Origin: Oligoflexia bacterium
Lineage (GTDB): Bacteria > Bdellovibrionota > UBA1018
Length of the DNA stretch: 64,000 nucleotides
Assembly (NCBI GenBank): GCA_963758495.1
Contig: CAVWVI010000003.1
Location: forward strand, 1,248,001-1,312,000
Direction of reading: 5' to 3'
Position numbers and translations under genes: made by a program. Below, piece by piece: positions 51,184-59,336 of the stretch (position 1 is the first letter of the stretch; each line of letters opens with the position of its first letter). The notes under the pieces are model-generated. The model was not told the DNA's origin. It made no database searches and was given only the letters and a program-made list of their open reading frames with translations.

Positions 51184-51933
51184 ATGAGCACTCAAACTGA
51201 AAACCCCACTCTCATCTTTTGTGATGGGGCTAGTTCTGGAAATCCAGGTCCAGGGGGATGGGGAGCCATTATCGCCACCCCCGAAGGAAAAATTACTGAG
51301 CTTGGGGGCCGCGAAGTCCCGACGACAAATAATCGAATGGAGCTTACCGGCGCTATCCGAGCCCTTGAGGTCACAAAAGAAATTAAAAACCAGGAAAACA
51401 AAAGTCGGATAGAAATCTACACGGATTCAACCTACGTCATTCGGGGAATTACACAATGGATTTGGGGTTGGCGAAAACGCAACTGGATCACTGCTGAGGG
51501 TAAAGAAGTCGCCAACACTGACCTATGGAAAAAACTCTCCCTCGCTATTCAAGGACAAGAAATTGAATGGAAATACGTCCGTGGCCATACGGGAGTTCCC
51601 GGAAATGAAAGAACAGATCAAATTGCCGTAGCCTTTTCTCAAGGAAAATTTATCCAACTCTATAGGGGTCCTTTACTTCAATACGAATTTCCGATTTATG
51701 ACCTCCCTGACACTACCGATCTTCCAGAAATGAAGCCTAAGCAAACTCCTTCCAAACCTTATTCATATCTAAGCTATGTTGACAATATTCCCATGCGCCA
51801 CTCAACTTGGCGAGAATGCGAAGGACGTGTCAAGGGGCGTCCAGGAGCAAAATTTAAAAAAGCGATGACCCCCGAAGACGAAGTCAAAATACTAAAATCA
51901 TGGGGATTAGAGCCAAAAAAGCTTCTAGATTGA
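51184..51933 (+). CDS. rnhA: Ribonuclease HI with C-terminal hybrid-binding (Cauli_VI-like) domain
   Basis: DGASSGNPGPGGWG, TNNRMEL, TDSTY, VRGHTG..GNERTD; C-terminal TWRECEGRVKGRPGAKFKK. Confidence 0.9.
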   Translation: MSTQTENPTLIFCDGASSGNPGPGGWGAIIATPEGKITELGGREVPTTNNRMELTGAIRALEVTKEIKNQENKSRIEIYTDSTYVIRGITQWIWGWRKRNWITAEGKEVANTDLWKKLSLAIQGQEIEWKYVRGHTGVPGNERTDQIAVAFSQGKFIQLYRGPLLQYEFPIYDLPDTTDLPEMKPKQTPSKPYSYLSYVDNIPMRHSTWRECEGRVKGRPGAKFKKAMTPEDEVKILKSWGLEPKKLLD

Positions 51934-52006
51934 CTAGTCTCCTTATTAATTTGGTGTTAATAATGCATAGACAACTCGCAGTCAATGTCCTAGGAGGAAG
52001 GAAATC

Positions 52007-52333
52007 ATGAGTAAAAAACTCTATGTTGGTAATTTACCGTTTACAACCACAGATCAAGATTTAAATGAAATTTTCACTCAGGCAGGCGAAGTCGCCTCGG
52101 CTAAAGTCATCATGGATCGTGACTCAGGTCGATCCAAAGGTTTTGGTTTTGTTGAGATGAATTCCGCTTCTGATGCTCTCAATGCAATTTCGCAATTTAA
52201 CGGTGCTCAGCTCAATGGTCGGCCGTTAACTGTCAACGAAGCTCGTCCCATGACTCCCCGAGATTCTAATGCCGGTGGGTACGGTAATAGCCGTAACAAT
52301 GAACGTAACAATGAACGTAACAACCGTTGGTAA
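52007..52333 (+). CDS. RRM RNA-binding protein
   Basis: RNP2 LYVGNL and RNP1 KGFGFVEM. Confidence 0.95.
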   Translation: MSKKLYVGNLPFTTTDQDLNEIFTQAGEVASAKVIMDRDSGRSKGFGFVEMNSASDALNAISQFNGAQLNGRPLTVNEARPMTPRDSNAGGYGNSRNNERNNERNNRW

Positions 52334-52339
52334 AATACC

Positions 52340-52603
52340 TTGTCACGCGAAGATTTAGCTCAAGTCGATGGAGTCATTTTGGATGTCTTAGCAGGGGGTA
52401 ACTTCACCGTTCAACTTCCCAACGGACAAACTATTTCCGCTAAACTTTCTGGCAGAATGAGAAAATTCCATATCCGCGTTATCCTTGGAGATCGGGTCAC
52501 CGTAGGCGTTAGCCCTTACGATCCAACGCATGGACTCATTTTACACCGCCATAAAGCCGGTAGCAGTCCGCCATCGCAGGGGTTTGGCTCGGCTGCGCAT
52601 TAA
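52340..52603 (+). CDS. infA: Translation initiation factor IF-1
   Basis: SGRMRKFHIRVILGDRVTVGVSPYD; TTG start. Confidence 0.9.
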   Translation: MSREDLAQVDGVILDVLAGGNFTVQLPNGQTISAKLSGRMRKFHIRVILGDRVTVGVSPYDPTHGLILHRHKAGSSPPSQGFGSAAH

Positions 52604-52647
52604 TCAGCAAAGTTTAATTCTTTATTCTTAATATTTCATATAATAAT

Positions 52648-52707
52648 CCACATATTTAGCTACTGTTGAATAAGTCATTCAATATAGCCAAATATGTGGT
52701 TTTTTTA
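52648..52707 (+). terminator. Long hairpin plus T run between convergent infA and antitoxin genes
   Basis: CCACATATTTAGCTA...TAGCCAAATATGTGG followed by a T run. Confidence 0.55.
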
Positions 52708-52748
52708 TTTTTACTTTTTCTTTTGAATAAATTTTAAATTAGCAGTTA

Positions 52749-53054
52749 TTAACCTGCCTTTTTTGCATGAGTACTTCGACTCAGTTTCCTGATCTGCAAT
52801 CTACGATCAAGAGCATCACTGACGAGTGTTTTGATAACCGCTTGCCGACTAACATTAAGCCTTCGCGCTTCTGCGTCTAATTCTGAAAGCATTTCAGTAG
52901 TAAAATCCACGTTAACCCGCTGAATATCTTCTCTTGGAACCCCTGGCCTCATTTCCCATTTTTCACTAAAGAATCGCGTTATATCTTCACCTCTGTCAGC
53001 CATTTCAGCAATTTCATCTGGTGTTGGTACTTTTTTCTTACCGCTCTTCTTCAT
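52749..53054 (-). CDS. BrnA-like (CopG/RHH) antitoxin
   Basis: QRVNVDFTTEMLSELDAEARRLNVSRQAVIK; overlaps the 3' end of the brnT remnant. Confidence 0.8.
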   Translation of the reverse strand: MKKSGKKKVPTPDEIAEMADRGEDITRFFSEKWEMRPGVPREDIQRVNVDFTTEMLSELDAEARRLNVSRQAVIKTLVSDALDRRLQIRKLSRSTHAKKAG

Positions 53055-53166
53055 AAATTTTCCTTTCCACCAAAGTAGACTTCCAAAGAGTTACTAAATG
53101 GTATAATACTCACCTTCAATGTCAGTTCGAACTTCAAAAATAACAGAGTAGAGATTAGATTTTGCC
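53038..53166 (-). pseudogene. brnT-type toxin, 3' part (also carries a 2-nt frameshift near 53101)
   Basis: AKSNLYSVIFEVRTDIEGEYY / HLVTLWKSTLVERKIYEEER*. Confidence 0.75.
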
Positions 53167-53223
53167 GCTCTTCTTAATCTATACAAATCTGGATACGATC
53201 GAGTTTAGATTAAGACGTCTGGT

Positions 53224-54326
53224 TTAACCAGCACATTGAATTTCTTGGGGTTGCGATTGAACGCATCCACTGGCCCGCGAGACGTGAATCCCACTACCGT
53301 GGAACCGCCAAGCCCATCTCTGAGTGGGCTGGAGAATTTTTTCTTTCTCCACTTTCTCCCAGAGTTGGCCCGAGCAAGGCACCTGTAATATTTTTATTTC
53401 CTGAGCAACTTTTTTAAACCCATTCATGGCGGCATTCTCATCCCTGATGTGATGAGTTTTACATTGGCCACATTGCCATTGTCTCACCGAAGGGTCTTGA
53501 GTCGGGCCTGTGGGGTGATCACATTGGGAACAGGTTTTTGTGCTCTTAGCTTCATCCCACTCAAAGTAGTTCTTCCCTTCACGGGTACAAACCCAGCTCA
53601 AAGTTTGCTTGAACTTCCCAATTTGACTTTGGTTATTCATAGAGCGCCTCATTCCAGTGGAGATCCCTCCCCCACGAGGAGTGTAGTCGCCTACTGCAAT
53701 AAAATCATAGCGTTTCACCAGAGCATTGGAGATTGCATAGAGGGCTGACTTAATCTTTTCTCGTTTCACCCGATACAACTCATCCAAGTATTTTTGAAAG
53801 AACTTCCATCTTCGGGATGGTCGCGTCATCTTACTTCCATCTTCTCTTTTTATTAAAACTGAGTTTTTATTACATCGATCTCTCCTTGCTTTAATTTCAT
53901 CTATTCTTTGATCCAAAGACTTTACGAACCAAAGATTTTCAATTTCGACCCCATTGGCTTCCGTATCAATGAGATATCCTAGATTTTTATGGTTGGGATC
54001 TATGACTGCTACTGAGTTTATTTCGGCAATCGGAGCAGGCATTGTTTTATTGATGCTCAGGTAGCTGACGAACAAGCCCCTTCTTTTTTAATTCGAATGC
54101 CAGTGAATGAAAGAAGCTTTCGAATCGAGAGTAACTTTTCTTTGGATTTTTCTTTTTTCTTCTGTGCCTTCATTCTTTTATGCTCTTTTTCCGCATGAAG
54201 AAGTTGATCCGCTACGGACTCAGGCATCTCTTGAATCTCGATCCTATGCTTCAGGGGGCCTTCCTTGTTTTCACCTAACGATAAATCTAAGTACCATTGA
54301 TGGTTCACTCGCTTGATGCTGTACCC
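53224..54326 (-). CDS. tnpB: TnpB exon 2 (RuvC and Zn finger), 1-nt frameshift near 54078
   Basis: GYSIKRVNHQWYL... then VIDPNHKN, VGDY, WDEAKSTKTCSQC, CGQC, RDENAAMN. Confidence 0.85.
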
Positions 54327-56739
54327 GTCGAGTAAGAGGGATGTATTGCTACATCCCCCTCCTCTCAGAACCGTACGTGATACTTATCGCATCATACGGC
54401 TCAAGCAGATTGCTCACTTCTTTTAAAGTTATCTTTAGTTTCTTTAAGGTTCTGTCGGCGATGTTTGTTTCTGAGTTGCTGACAGTCGTAGTGCATGAGG
54501 TAACGGTTCTCAGCTAGTGGAGAGCCTCCAACTTTAGGACGAATAATTGGATATTCAAGAAGCCCTTCTCCGTTCAGTAAATCATTCCCACATTCTGGGC
54601 AGCGGAATTCCTGCCTTTTTGCGAGGATTTTCTGCTGTGGTTTGAGGTTCTTGATGTCTTTTCGTTTCCGTGATTCCCAATATGATTTTAGGCTCGGATC
54701 GTCAGGAGAAGAGCTTCCTTTGACCAACGTATGACGTTCAATAGGAAACCAATTGAATCGTAACATGTAGGCTCCGGTTTCTTTATCCCCGAATACCCAT
54801 TTATCGTTACGCTTTTCATTGAATTTCCCCCAGTATCTATTGCGCATCCATCGCATTGATTTATTGGGGTGTCGATATTTTACATATCGCATTTCCCGTT
54901 TGAACATCCAATTATCCATCTTACCGAAGATACGTTTTGCACAACTGGTTCTGAAGTAATTAGCCCACCCACGAATGATAGAGTTGAATTTTCCTATTAT
55001 CTCAATGGGAGAGTTCCCTTTCATTGAAAGCCATTTATCCTTCAGGTTCTTGCGAAGCTTCATTATGGATGCTTTGCTAGGCTTGATGATCAATTTCTTT
55101 CCAGATCGAGATGAACGAGGTGTGCTATATTGTCGGACATTGAAACCTAGAAAATCAAATCCTTCGGAGATGTGGACTATTCGTGTCTTTTCCTCCGAGA
55201 ATTGAAGTCCTCTTGGTCTTAACCAGTTATCGAGGATCTTACGTGATTTTTCAGCTTCTTCTTTGGATTCACAGAGCACGACTAAATCATCCGCGTATAT
55301 GATCACATCCCTTTTGGGCGAGCCATATTCTACGAATTTGTTATATCTCTGTGAATACCTTTGTTCCTTCAACGCATCTCCGATGCCGTGCAGGGCTATA
55401 TTTAATAATAATGGACTAATGACCCCTCCTTGTGGTGTCCCACTTTCAGTAGGGTTCCATTCCCCATCTTCCATGTATCCTGCTTTTAACCATTGTTTTA
55501 TCAATTCTCTTCCGGGAAATCCCGCAATGGTTTTCAGAAGAAATTCATGATTTATTTCATTAAATGCTCCCTTGAGATCGGCGTCTAAGATCCATTCTCT
55601 TTTGCCTTTACTTGGACGTACGTATCCAAATATTTTCTCTATAGCATCATGACAGCCCCGTCCTGGTCGAAATCCGTAGCATGATCCTTCGAATTTAGCC
55701 TCCCAGTATGGTTCAAGTGCATTCTTGACCATAGCTTGAAGAGAGCGATCGAGAATCACCGGAATTCCTAACGGATGGGGTTGCTTGTTTGCTTTTGGGA
55801 TATATACTCTTCTAGTTGGTTTAGCCTTCCAGAGAGTGTATTCTGATAGAGTATTCAGCAGTTGTCCTCTTTCAAAAGAGTCTTTTGCTACCACCTTATC
55901 GATTCCAGGTGTTTTCTTTCCAGAATTAATTTGCGTTACTCTCCTTACGCTTATAGCGCTGTTGGAGCGTGATCGCAGCATTAGTTTCTGTAGAGATCGT
56001 ACCTTTTTTAGATCTCCTGCTTGAGAAGCCCGAAAGATCCGGTGTCTTAGATTTCTTACAATTCGATTGGCCTCATCCCACTGGATAGATTCCCATTCAA
56101 TTTGTTCTTTGGTTACATTTGCTTGTCTTTTAACTCGCATCTAACTTTTCCCATAAGATTTAGAAACTTCACACCTTACTTTGGACAATCCACCAGACCC
56201 ACGTTAGCTCCCTTTTCAGGGCGGGTATTTTTTTTTCCCTATCTACCGAGTTATGTATTTCTCTTACCTTTCGGTTGGTAGCATTTGCTTCTTAGGTCCT
56301 CCTGTCCCCCAATGAGAATTAGATCTTTCTTGCGATCGACTTACCGAGTTATCTCGGACTCATTTGGGATTCCACGTTCCGCACATATGAGATTCGATAG
56401 GGTTGGGTTTCTTCTGTACTGCGGGAGCTTTGGTGTCTGTGCGCCTTCGCTAACAAGAAGGCTTTCATTTTGGGCTTCTCAACCCCTGCTCCATTTCAAT
56501 CGTCTTTAATTAGCCATCTTCCGATTGTTCGAATTATCGCAGCTTCATCGAAGATTTATTTGCATTAACCCTTTCTATCTTCCTCTAATCTGGTCTCCTA
56601 TTATGGTTATAGGGTCCTTAGACATTACTTCTCGCTTAGAACCCCACTGTTACCAGTGGCGCTCCGGGAAGTGAGGATATACCTAGACACTGGTATAGAG
56701 GCGTTAACCTCACTCATGGTGAGCGACCTCGTGTCGCAC
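54327..56739 (-). mobile_element. Group II intron (2,413 bp) interrupting tnpB
   Basis: 5' end GTGCGACACG at 56739; domain V GAGCCGTATGATGCGATAAGTATCACGTACGGTTC; domain VI hairpin; 3' end CTCGAC at 54327; encodes an RT/maturase. Confidence 0.92.
54401..56140 (-). CDS. ltrA: Group II intron reverse transcriptase/maturase with degenerate HNH domain
   Basis: GKKTPGID, YGFRPGR, GTPQGGVISPLL, YADD, GFDFLGF, maturase RGWANYF; stop codon abuts domain V. Confidence 0.95.
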   Translation of the reverse strand: MRVKRQANVTKEQIEWESIQWDEANRIVRNLRHRIFRASQAGDLKKVRSLQKLMLRSRSNSAISVRRVTQINSGKKTPGIDKVVAKDSFERGQLLNTLSEYTLWKAKPTRRVYIPKANKQPHPLGIPVILDRSLQAMVKNALEPYWEAKFEGSCYGFRPGRGCHDAIEKIFGYVRPSKGKREWILDADLKGAFNEINHEFLLKTIAGFPGRELIKQWLKAGYMEDGEWNPTESGTPQGGVISPLLLNIALHGIGDALKEQRYSQRYNKFVEYGSPKRDVIIYADDLVVLCESKEEAEKSRKILDNWLRPRGLQFSEEKTRIVHISEGFDFLGFNVRQYSTPRSSRSGKKLIIKPSKASIMKLRKNLKDKWLSMKGNSPIEIIGKFNSIIRGWANYFRTSCAKRIFGKMDNWMFKREMRYVKYRHPNKSMRWMRNRYWGKFNEKRNDKWVFGDKETGAYMLRFNWFPIERHTLVKGSSSPDDPSLKSYWESRKRKDIKNLKPQQKILAKRQEFRCPECGNDLLNGEGLLEYPIIRPKVGGSPLAENRYLMHYDCQQLRNKHRRQNLKETKDNFKRSEQSA

Positions 56740-57141
56740 GTTTGCATATTCATCATATTCCAAAGAAAAGAACTTTTTCTTGGACGAGCGAAACTTCGGC
56801 CACCCTACATTTTGTTGCTGATTCTTCGGAAGCTTACGATTTTTTTGAAATCGTTGAATCGATCGAGATAGTCTTAAAGCTGCATTTTTTAAGGGCGCAC
56901 AATGAGAGGTTAGTAAAAAAGGGTGTTCTTTCTTTAGACCAGGTACCAAATTTCTAAGTCCACGTTTCGTGTAAACCGTTTGCGATGCCTCAGAAGAACC
57001 TGTGAGCTTAAACGCTTCTTTCTCCTGATTGGCTCGTTCCAGAAGACGATTGTAAAGCCAATTGCAGATCCTTGACTGACCCTCCAAGGAGTACTCCTGC
57101 TCGGGAGTGAGGTTCAGGGGAATTTTAACCGCAAGCTTCAT
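56740..57141 (-). CDS. tnpB: TnpB exon 1 (134 codons)
   Basis: SRICNWLYNRLL...GWPKFRS...FFSLEYDE; overlaps the tnpA stop by 17 nt. Confidence 0.85.
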
Positions 57142-57745
57142 CAGCAGCCTCTTTCAATGCTTGTACAATTTTTTTATTCTTGTGGCTTCTGGCTCCATAG
57201 AGTCTCGCCGAAAAAACTGTGATGATCTCAAGCACGTCTTGGGCCAACTCTTCTTCAAACGAAAGTTCACTGCTCGCATTCATGATCACTACTTCAGTTT
57301 GAAACTGCTCACAAAGAGAAAATACAAGCTCAGATCCGAATCGTAAAAGGCGATCTTTGTGGGTCAATACAAGCCGATCGACTTCTCCTGAACAGATCTT
57401 TTTCATCAAAAGTCTGAGGTTCTTTTTTTGGAAGTTGAGTCCAGATCCCAGATCACTCAATACTTCATACTGCCAACCTCGAGCTGAACAAAACGACTCA
57501 AGCAATTGAATCTGGCGCTTCAAATCCGAAGTCTGATCTCGACCCGATACACGAGCATAACCAATTGTGCGACGAGCATCCTTCAAAATAGGTCCTGTCG
57601 ATCGAGTTCCAAAGGAAGTTAAATCATATCTTCGATGTCCTCCTGGAGTGCGTTCAGACTGAATTTTTCCGTCCGCTTCCCATCTACGAAGAGTCTCAAT
57701 AGTCACACCTAAAGCCTTAGCTGCTTGGTTTATACTGACTCGCAT
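57125..57745 (-). CDS. tnpA: IS607 TnpA serine recombinase (N-terminal MerR-type HTH)
   Basis: AAKALGVTIETLRRW...RTPGGHRRY, GYARVS, DLGSGLN, HKDRLLRFG, FSARLYG. Confidence 0.95.
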   Translation of the reverse strand: MRVSINQAAKALGVTIETLRRWEADGKIQSERTPGGHRRYDLTSFGTRSTGPILKDARRTIGYARVSGRDQTSDLKRQIQLLESFCSARGWQYEVLSDLGSGLNFQKKNLRLLMKKICSGEVDRLVLTHKDRLLRFGSELVFSLCEQFQTEVVIMNASSELSFEEELAQDVLEIITVFSARLYGARSHKNKKIVQALKEAADEACG

Positions 57746-57817
57746 GATTTCATTGCATTACTTATTTTTATAGATTTGTCTAGATAAGACTATATTTTTT
57801 GATGCTGTTTTATAACC

Positions 57818-57963
57818 CTTCCTATAGCAATGAATTGCTCTGGATCATCTGAACGATAGTTGACGCAATGAGGACCATAGAAAAGCTCCTTCACTTCCTC
57901 AAATCCGATACCTCGTGTTCTTCGGACTAATTCACTTTTTACCATATCAAATTTAAACCGCAC
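57818..57963 (-). pseudogene. brnT-type toxin, 5' part
   Basis: GTG start, RFKFDMVKSELVRRTRGIGFEEVKELF...DDPEQFIAIG, cut by the IS607 left end. Confidence 0.75.
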
Positions 57964-58039
57964 ACAAAAATGGTATAACAGATATACTATAATTGCAACG
58001 CCCAGAGCTGATGACTCATTCTCATAAAAACTTGTCCTA

Positions 58040-58640
58040 CCGACATCGAGGCCATACCTGGGGCACTCCGAGCGACTTAATGGAGGGGCTTATTTTGGCT
58101 GGTGAGACACTTACGAGAGCCTTCTTTGCAATAAAACGGAACCACAATCCGTCTACCCATGGAGGAGGTGCCTCGTTTTGTTCCGCTTTGGAGTTTGGGG
58201 TAGTGAGATGTGAGGTGTGGTGATACCAGGGGATATTTATTATTTATATTAAGTTTAGTATGCGCTCTTTTAGATAACTTCTCCTATGAGTTGCCTAAAA
58301 CCTGAAATAAAGAAGTGACCTACCGGCTAGTTGGTCAGTTTATTTCACATTCCAAGAAAAATATCGTTGAAGCACTTTGTGCGCGTTCCGCAGGCAAAAA
58401 GAAATATTGTTTATAGAAGGAATGAGACTGGAAAGCCTTACAACACCCCATAACTCACTGCCACTACTTCCAATAACGCACCTCTCCACTTTCTCCATAG
58501 AAAAACAAAACGAGCCCCCCTTGGCAAGCCGGATTGCGGTCCCGTTTTATTGCAAAGAAGGCTCTCGTAAGTGTCTCACCAGCCAAAATAAGCCCCTCCA
58601 TTAAGTCGCTCGGAGTGCTTCAGTATGACCTCGACGTCGG
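58040..58640. repeat. Long inverted repeat pair (~140-bp arms, 77-bp perfect core) around a ~320-bp spacer
   Basis: 58063-58139 is the exact reverse complement of 58542-58618; imperfect similarity extends on both sides. Confidence 0.9.
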
Positions 58641-58699
58641 AAACGGTCGCACTGGATTGGATTCTAACTTGAATGCGGCGCGGCCGTACTTCTACCTCG

Positions 58700-58839
58700 T
58701 TTAGGTGCATCCAGAGATTCAAGCCATGAAACAAAATCGGGCTGAAGTCTGTCCCGAAAATACGACTCCACCAGACCGCTCCAGCCCAGACTGTATAGGT
58801 CATAGGGATGTAAAGGTGCGCGCATAGGGCTGGGTCCAA
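58700..58839 (-). pseudogene. Short fragment of a TMTC-like membrane glycosyltransferase gene
   Basis: LYIPMTYTVW...PILFHGLNLWMHLN resembles YYPLT...PFVFHLTSLILHVIN of the gene at 37410..39060. Confidence 0.45.
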
Positions 58840-58961
58840 AACTCCAAAATTGACTGCCCTGAAAGTCGAAGAAAATGGGGGTTTTCTAAAAGTAGTTCAG
58901 AAATTCATAAGTTAAAGTTTGGCCATAAAGCGCGCATACCATAGCTGATAGCAACTCACAT

Positions 58962-59336
58962 TTATTTTTTTAGACTCGGACAATACCCAGGTCGAGGTCC
59001 GATCTTTGGAAATGACCGGCAAACTTCCGGTCTTTTTTCATAAACAGTACAGCGTCGATTTTTATCTAAATAAATGCAATCTCGGCCAGCCCTCTGCTCA
59101 AGAACAAAGAGCTGTGACTTGGCTTGAAATGCTTGGATAATTCCTTCTCGCATCAATCGTCTGGCTACTTTTTTTAAGGATTCTGCAGCCTCATCTTCAG
59201 TAATCAGCTCCAAACGCATCAGATCTCGGGCACTGACCTCCACGGGGAGGGTACAGCAACCCGACCAACAGCCCTCACACATCCCTTTTTTATACTTAAG
59301 CCAAGTTGAAGGCTCCTGAATTTGCACATGCTCCAT
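58962..59336 (-). CDS. YkgJ-family cysteine-cluster (CxxCxxxCC) protein
   Basis: CEGCWSGCC...CIYLD...CTVYEKRPEVCRSFP. Confidence 0.85.
   Translation of the reverse strand: MEHVQIQEPSTWLKYKKGMCEGCWSGCCTLPVEVSARDLMRLELITEDEAAESLKKVARRLMREGIIQAFQAKSQLFVLEQRAGRDCIYLDKNRRCTVYEKRPEVCRSFPKIGPRPGYCPSLKK

Follow-up and report, generated by a model that had tools for sequence, protein, structure and literature searches.

A group II intron in the tnpB gene of an IS607-family element inserted in a brnT toxin gene of an Oligoflexia bacterium

We have analysed a stretch of 64 000 nt (the window) from the genome of an Oligoflexia bacterium (GTDB lineage Bdellovibrionota, UBA1018; GenBank assembly GCA_963758495.1, contig CAVWVI010000003.1, positions 1,248,001 to 1,312,000). 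In this window a group II intron lies within the tnpB gene of an IS607-family insertion sequence (IS), and the IS lies in turn within a brnT toxin gene. This three-level nesting is confirmed: the anatomy had been proposed in a preliminary description made from the nucleotide sequence, and it is borne out by profile matches and by alignments with homologues. Coordinates are window positions, and all features of the locus are on the minus strand (Table 1). Read from 5′ to 3′ on that strand, the order is the 5′ part of brnT, the IS left end, tnpA, tnpB exon 1, the intron, tnpB exon 2, the IS right end, the 3′ part of brnT and brnA. The genome assembly is 92% complete and consists of five contigs (C1 to C5). 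It contains a second copy of the IS with its intron (copy 2; G000:C3:6-4644), which is 99.87% identical to the window element over 4639 aligned bases, with five substitutions and one indel.

Table 1. Features of the nested locus, in window coordinates
Feature	Position	Strand	Remarks
brnA antitoxin gene	52749..53054	-	intact open reading frame (ORF), 101 aa; ATG overlaps the brnT end
brnT 3′ fragment	53038..53166	-	from three-frame translation compared with seven BrnT homologues; further frame change inside
Second brnT lesion	53101..53108	-	frame change of +2 or -1 within TATTATAC
IS607-family element including the intron	53167..57817	-	4651 bp; 2238 bp without the intron; G runs at both junctions
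tnpB 3′ end and IS right end, candidate guide-RNA (omega/reRNA) scaffold	53167..53420	-	assigned by position only
tnpB exon 2	53224..54326	-	TNB domain (Pfam); two ORFs in different frames
Group II intron	54327..56739	-	2413 nt, same strand as tnpB
Intron domains 5 and 6	54327..54404	-	Rfam RF00029
Intron-encoded protein	54401..56140	-	579 aa; reverse transcriptase (RT) with YADD, maturase, degenerate HNH tail
Probable exon-binding sequence 1 (EBS1) GUUAGC, hairpin loop	56449..56454	-	loop position in alignment with relatives
Probable EBS2 AUUCG	56530..56534	-	suggested by loop position
tnpB exon 1	56740..57141	-	134 codons; Pfam HTH_OrfB_IS605
tnpA, IS607-type serine recombinase	57125..57745	-	206 aa, intact
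IS left end	57791..57817	-	27 nt; appends VIKQHQKI-stop to the truncated brnT
brnT 5′ fragment	57818..57963	-	48 codons, GTG start

The assignment to the IS607 family rests on the recombinase and on the ends. TnpA scores 206 bits against the NCBIfam equivalog transpos_IS607 (cut-off 110), and its Pfam matches stand in the IS607 order, with a MerR helix-turn-helix domain at residues 4-40 and the catalytic Resolvase domain behind it at residues 61-190. The tnpB gene follows tnpA on the same strand, its start at 57141 overlapping tnpA by 17 nt; the translated exons match positions 2-110 and 134-385 of the NCBIfam profile guided_TnpB. Elements of the IS607 family are described as crossing over at GG (PMC10711439). 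In the genome studied here all five left ends are preceded by GGG, and all three right ends finish in GG (GAGCGG). The 27-nt left end recurs at two other places, its 20-nt core at five places in all. The window element is thus delimited by a GG crossover without target-site duplication, as is characteristic of the family.

The IS ends are corroborated, independently of the preliminary description, by copy 2 and by a miniature element. Copy 2 is common with the window element up to ...AAGAGCGG at the right end. In the miniature element (contig C4, 40190-40256; L006 ~1470-1540), GG and 26 left-end nt are joined through a perfect 11-bp hairpin to the final 14 nt of the right end, which again finish in GG. 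The claim that every junction is exact to the base holds for the intron and in substance for the IS, where the G run shared by the two sides leaves an ambiguity of 1-2 nt in the boundary. An empty site with three Gs is favoured over one with two solely by the brnT frame: the GGG in front of every left end would allow the two-G site, which was dropped only because it leaves brnT out of frame relative to the spacing in all seven homologues (see below). A left boundary at 57801, where the homology with copy 2 stops, was also considered and rejected, since contig C5 begins with the missing 20 nt and the left end is complete in the miniature elements.

Two further places, C4:966688-966707 and C3:102593-102612, show only the left end followed by a portion of the hairpin. 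The left end also closes a host ORF of 216 aa at another locus (L005), adding VIKQHQKM-stop much as in brnT of the window.

The interrupted host locus has the arrangement of a BrnT/BrnA type II toxin–antitoxin system, with a gene for a BrnT-fold toxin directly ahead of a gene for a ribbon-helix-helix (RHH) antitoxin. The 5′ part of brnT corresponds to positions 1-50 of the 77 positions of the Pfam profile BrnT_toxin. It is 47-58% identical to seven BrnT homologues, taken from genomes of the same order, where they precede a brnA homologue. BrnA itself scores 59.6 bits with the NCBIfam BrnA profile, just under the cut-off of 60, and its Pfam RHH match is weak; homologues of brnA are present in 30 of the 116 genomes of the order, the genome studied here included. 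As the preliminary description stated, the 101-aa brnA frame is uninterrupted.

Removal of 53167-57817 joins AIG to LYSV through five residues (RAKSN), and exactly five residues separate AIG/ATG from L[YF]SV in each of the seven homologues. The rejoined gene keeps a single G run with no duplication. The reported in-frame rejoining of brnT is thus correct as to the junction, with frame and spacing matching all homologues, while the gene as a whole stays broken by a second frame change within 53101-53108, 60 nt past the IS junction. In the 3′ part, one frame gives AKSNLYSVIFEVRTDIEGEYY and a different one HLVTLWKSTLVERKIYEEER-stop. The reading that contains ...DIEGEYY meets two stops, and HLVTLWKST...EEER, in another frame, reaches the stop at 53038; in all seven homologues the sequence is ...YYHLVTLW, or a near variant, with no additional residue. 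With brnT broken twice, BrnT/BrnA is, as judged from the reading frames, no longer functional as a pair.

The intron is inserted after codon 134 of tnpB. Its removal joins ...SLEYDEYAN to GYSIKRV..., and at this point there is no gap in the alignment with any of six uninterrupted homologues (496-506 aa). The nearest of the uninterrupted homologues, P0003, has 501 aa and is 80% identical; others are 53-59% identical over the exon-2 query. Intron removal therefore rejoins the gene colinearly, as had been claimed, and the frame of exon 2 is broken further on. At 54059/54060 the window copy has one T where copy 2 has TT, a deletion of 1 nt that breaks the frame, and the homologues keep the reading frame of copy 2 across this site. 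Eleven bases upstream of the deletion, at 54070, the window copy carries W220S; both copy 2 and all six homologues read W. The tnpB frameshift, which the preliminary description had allowed might be real, is real in the window copy by comparison with copy 2 and with the homologues.

The RuvC motifs and the TNB domain are accordingly not encoded in one frame in the window copy, and they are found in the intact 501-aa frame of copy 2, at C3:666-4581. There, the RuvC-I aspartate, the alternative-glutamate pattern and RDENAA are present. The TnpB sequence obtained by removing the intron fits the alternative RuvC-II pattern, in which a glutamate is followed by six residues, CxxC, 12-18 residues, CxxC, 4-8 residues and an aspartate. 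The same pattern occurs in 79 of 121 proteins compared and in 6 of 7 proteins of the close set. The missing canonical glutamate is thus a trait of the lineage rather than a sign of decay. TnpBs of IS607 elements with an alternative RuvC-II glutamate have been proposed as ancestors of Fanzor (Yoon et al. 2023, PMC10711439). The protein described here resembles them in the glutamate pattern, in the neighbouring IS607 serine recombinase and in crossover at a G run; the likeness is one of motifs only, and the RuvC-I motif is DPN here, while the first pattern given in that paper demands DPG.

A candidate guide-RNA scaffold lies at the right end. The region 53145-53420 folds with z = −4.18, and none of 200 shuffled sequences folds as well; no Rfam family, and hence no known guide-RNA family, was matched at the right end at E ≤ 10. 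The intron is situated ~1.1 kb upstream of the 3′ end of the element, thus leaving the probable scaffold uninterrupted. With regard to the protein, the proposal that TnpB production depends on splicing agrees with the reading frames: any TnpB from an intron-bearing copy would have to come from spliced RNA. For copy 2, TnpB should be translatable from spliced RNA only, and the window copy, given its frame, is predicted to make no TnpB at all.

The intron begins with GUGCGAC and ends with ...CUCGAC, in agreement with the group II terminal rule (GUGYG...AY), and is in sense orientation to tnpB. Domains 5 and 6 match Rfam RF00029 (Intron_gpII) with 59 bits (gathering score 40, E 5.4e-10), and there is a partial match to D1-D4-7 of 28.7 bits, under the gathering score of 34. 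The intron ORF, an RT/maturase frame of domain 4, has the Pfam domains RVT_N, RVT_1 and GIIM and scores 326.6 bits with TIGR04416 (cut-off 300). Its YADD motif is at RT residue 282. In the RPLGIP motif the window RT has H122, where copy 2 has R and 29 of 31 relatives have Arg. The HNH motif is degenerate, with YP in place of HH (kept in 23 of 26 relatives) and CQ in place of CH; no HNH endonuclease domain was matched in the intron protein by Pfam at E ≤ 0.01.

The exon-binding sequences were assigned by loop position in a domain 1 alignment of seven sequences, the intron and six relatives. In five of the six relatives the loop in the same column holds 6-7 contiguous nt complementary to the relative's own 5′ exon; the remaining one (L017) has no clear match. 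In the window intron the corresponding loop is UUGUUAGC. Its GUUAGC forms five of six pairs with GCAAAC, the last six bases of the exon and hence the intron-binding sequence IBS1, with an internal A.A mismatch. The putative EBS2 (AUUCG) would form five pairs, including a G.U, with the UGAAU that occupies exon positions −13 to −9. A script search of the intron for at least five contiguous EBS1 pairs found none. Taken together, the sequence features suggest that the intron is at best a weak, endonuclease-independent homer at the tnpB site. The EBS1 mismatch and the degenerate HNH motif thus speak for transposition of the IS carrying its intron rather than for independent homing.

Relatives of the intron RT, with 37-69% identity, come from cyanobacteria, planctomycetes, Rickettsia and other endosymbionts. 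In a tblastn search of the available flanks, neither tnpB nor tnpA was found beside the relatives at any of 33 loci. The idea of an intron lineage tied to tnpB was dropped on this ground.

Copy 2 makes it possible to tell decay from inherited features. Its frames for tnpA, for the RT and, with the intron removed, for tnpB are all intact, the last having the same length as P0003. The TnpA proteins of the two copies are identical. Of the six differences between the copies, the three damaging ones (the 1-nt deletion, W220S and R122H) are all in the window copy and the other three are synonymous. The differences amount to 1/2413 positions in the intron and 5/2225 in the IS exons (Fisher p = 0.11). 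The right flank of copy 2 is unique and unlike that of the window element, and a plausible unique left flank is present on C5. The first 5 nt of C3 (GTTAC) match nothing; C3 and C5 probably abut across the IS repeat.

Within the genome the intron DNA matches only the two IS copies, and the IS exons likewise match nothing else apart from two isolated 27-nt left ends. Neither an intron-less copy of the IS nor a free copy of the intron was found in the genome. The search for intron-plus and intron-minus copies, suggested in the preliminary description, has thus yielded a second intron-plus copy and no intron-minus one in this genome. That description would have accepted a dead-end insertion if, among other things, the element were single-copy and the tnpB frameshift real. 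By the frameshift, to which R122H and the second brnT lesion are added, the window copy is a dead end; the element is not single-copy, copy 2 having an intact spliced frame.

The group II RT loci of this genome, five in number, are all in or beside insertion sequences; two of the five are the IS copies described above. A different intron occupies C1:323615-327594 (L061 7615-11594) after codon 43 of an IS605-type tnpB, with a Y1 tnpA divergently placed (L061 11097-11594). Five uninterrupted homologues (359-370 aa) run colinearly through its exon junction (...VNFVWNYC|NDTSFNAIR...). The intron matches Rfam D1-D4-7 with 76.7 bits and domains 5-6 with 53.9 bits; its RT (568 aa) is 35% identical to the window RT and has an intact HNH motif. 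A third intron type (Rfam D1-D4-6, 118 bits) is present in two copies, each ~260 nt downstream of an IS110-type transposase gene, at L062 3489-6608 (C4 ~24.5-27.6 kb) and L063 3380-8058 (C3 ~327.9-332.6 kb).

Some peculiarities of these loci may be mentioned. The interrupted IS605-type tnpB at L061 reads GGDPG at RuvC-I, compared with GIDLG in its homologues. At L062 the RT ORF of the third intron type is split by a stop, and at L063 domain 1 is separated from the RT ORF by an inserted Tn5/IS4-like transposase gene.

Among the relatives of this bacterium the IS is rare. When 41 related genomes were searched with the TnpB exon-2 query, only the genome studied here was hit (0 of the 40 others). 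Among 401 genomes of the phylum there were three matches at E ≤ 1e-40, namely this genome and two at 39-45% identity. A metagenome scan with TnpB returned one locus of 1257 bp, 65% identical and too short to reveal an intron, and a viral scan found no relatives of the composite. The rarity of the IS among relatives suggests a recent import.

We interpret the locus as three selfish or addictive elements, independent of each other, that have become stacked by hitch-hiking, rather than as an integrated machine, and we would give this reading a probability of about 80%. The window copy is, to judge from its coding sequences, a decaying relic that is dead in three ways: by the lesions in tnpB, by R122H in the RT and by the second frame change in brnT. 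The intron gains a ride by transposition and a harmless landing site, and nothing shows a benefit to the IS. If splicing is as inefficient as that of RmInt1, an intron of Sinorhizobium meliloti whose splicing efficiency in vivo was reported as 0.07% within ISRm2011-2 and which is argued to limit the spread of its host IS (PMC3035460, PMC4238363), the elements would make little TnpB.

The following course of events would account for the locus. An IS607-family transposon, with tnpA and an alternative-glutamate tnpB, may have entered the lineage, probably by horizontal transfer. The group II intron would then have retrotransposed in sense orientation into tnpB between codons 134 and 135, a site that fits its exon-binding sequences imperfectly. 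Next, the intron-bearing IS would have given rise to at least two copies, most likely by transposition of the whole unit through TnpA alone. Both copies have an intact TnpA, which should be able to excise and insert the 4.65-kb unit by GG crossover; IS607 transposition is reported to require only tnpA (PMC6188088). One copy presumably crossed over at the G run of brnT and so parted the toxin from brnA. Window copy and brnT would have decayed thereafter, and the sister copy at the start of C3 has kept all three frames. We infer this order of events, and the movement as a unit, from the comparisons given above.

Several observations weigh against this account. The probable EBS assignments rest on loop position in the seven-sequence alignment and not on a full structural model. 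The trend in the differences between intron and exons is as compatible with later homing or gene conversion as with unit movement. The intact frames of the sister copy could reflect selection on a working composite; they could equally reflect youth, there being only six differences. Finally, the left end of copy 2 falls at a contig break, its first 20 nt standing in reverse at the start of C5, so that its left junction is inferred.

The alternative that survives best concerns the third step. The IS may have duplicated while still intron-less, copy 2 receiving its intron afterwards by retrohoming, with no transposition of the combined unit. We regard this as possible and as clearly the less likely course. 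Such behaviour has its precedent in RmInt1, which classically retrohomes into every copy of its host IS (PMC3035460), and the lower divergence of the intron noted above points the same way, non-significantly. Homing should, on the other hand, be lowered by the internal A.A mismatch between EBS1 and IBS1, found in both copies, and by the degenerate HNH motif, and no empty IS copy is left in the genome. An intact tnpA, together with the reported dispensability of tnpB for IS607 transposition (PMC6188088), leaves unit transposition available; and the IS110-linked intron type is likewise present in the genome as two units of IS and intron.

A more speculative view, which we find rather doubtful, keeps the separate origins and supposes that the IS607 element and the intron now travel as one unit, as a group II analogue of the IStrons (chimeras of a group I intron with IS605 or IS607 elements, known from clostridia and bacilli; PMC10690162, PMC4227781). 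The intron, its endonuclease lost and its site mismatched, would spread mainly by TnpA transposition and possibly by TnpB-guided homing. In the sister copy it would throttle the alternative-glutamate TnpB through splicing and leave the guide-RNA region uninterrupted. In view of the second, unrelated tnpB with a group II intron in this genome, tnpB genes may be a favoured low-cost refuge for such introns.

Improbable in our judgement is a fully functional composite, in which splicing gates TnpB and in which transposition, RNA-guided homing and retrohoming reinforce one another. A coupling of this kind was the inference drawn in the preliminary description, and we do not uphold it. In both IS copies the intron occupies the same codon position, with no intron-less copy beside them in the genome, the sister copy retains intact frames for tnpA, RT and spliced tnpB, the sense-oriented intron leaves the 3′ guide-RNA region untouched, and a second tnpB of the genome is likewise interrupted by a group II intron, one of the same Rfam D1-D4 class; all this would suit such a composite. 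Against it, the window copy is dead, the intron shows the marks of a weak homer (mismatched EBS1, degenerate HNH), and none of the 33 loci of RT relatives is near tnpB or tnpA. Uninterrupted TnpB relatives exist, both at 80% identity and at 53-59%. The two tnpB introns of the genome stand at unrelated positions (codon 134 and codon 43) in unrelated exon sequences, and neither the 401 genomes of the phylum nor the metagenome and viral scans yielded a relative of the composite.

One might suspect that copy 2 arose in assembly, from a repeat collapsed or duplicated where a contig ends, and that the element is single-copy: copy 2 begins 6 nt from the start of C3, its left end is split onto C5 and the first 5 nt of C3 are unmatched. 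This reading is very hard to reconcile with six differences that include a frame-changing indel and sites at which outside homologues agree with copy 2 and not with the window copy, or with the unique right flank and plausible unique left flank of copy 2.

The stack of hitch-hiking elements does not define a new category, as group II introns in insertion sequences, IS605 elements included, have already been published. The closest parallel in arrangement is RmInt1 in ISRm2011-2. In both cases an ORF-bearing group II intron lies in sense orientation inside a gene of an IS and expression of that gene needs splicing; the intron is present in the IS copies of the genome, and its protein has no working DNA endonuclease (absent in RmInt1, degenerate here). 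The differences are that the interrupted gene is here tnpB, for an accessory RNA-guided nuclease, and not the transposase gene, so that the IS607 element can move without splicing; that the host IS is of the serine-recombinase type; and that the exon match is imperfect, RmInt1 having its cognate homing site in ISRm2011-2. In contrast to RmInt1, the window element is known from sequence alone.

Group II introns of the RT-HNH type have also been described inside IS605 transposons of Anabaena and Nostoc, including PCC 7107 (Kapitonov, Makarova, Koonin 2016, PMC4810608). Those cases, likewise known from genome sequence only, share with the window element an RT-HNH group II intron within a TnpB-carrying element of the IS200/IS605 superfamily. 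They differ in being IS605 elements with a Y1 transposase in cyanobacteria, while the window element is of the IS607 type with a serine recombinase. An IS605-type case is present in the genome studied here as well, at L061.

The likeness to IStrons, to which the preliminary description had compared the locus, is looser. As in IStrons, a self-splicing intron and a transposon with tnpA and tnpB form one piece of DNA, and splicing and TnpB biology meet on one transcript. In the IStrons described, a group I intron encloses the IS and the whole element splices from the host gene. Here, a group II intron sits inside tnpB, brnT is not repaired and there is no overlap with the guide-RNA region; no group I intron was matched by Rfam in 52000-59000.

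The distinguishing mark of this locus is that an intact copy accompanies the decayed one, in a genome whose every group II intron is in or beside an insertion sequence. The nesting of selfish elements is resolved at the level of bases, and a decaying copy can be compared with an intact one as nature left them in one genome. If the intact copy splices, it would offer a simple natural system for asking how intron removal limits an RNA-guided nuclease, whether an IS607 element carries a 2.4-kb passenger when it moves and whether an endonuclease-deficient intron depends on its host transposon to spread.

The genome has other genes of the IS607 type. An intact, intron-less element of another lineage lies at C1:317081-318963 (L061 1081-2963), with a tnpA of 204 aa and a tnpB of 478 aa. 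Further tnpA genes of this type are found at C2:123245-123781 and, with an internal stop, at C3:747930-748373. In the window itself, the plus strand of 51184-52603 carries ORFs which, judged by eye from their translations, encode a 249-aa RNase H-like protein, a 108-aa RNA-binding protein of the RRM type and an IF-1-like protein.

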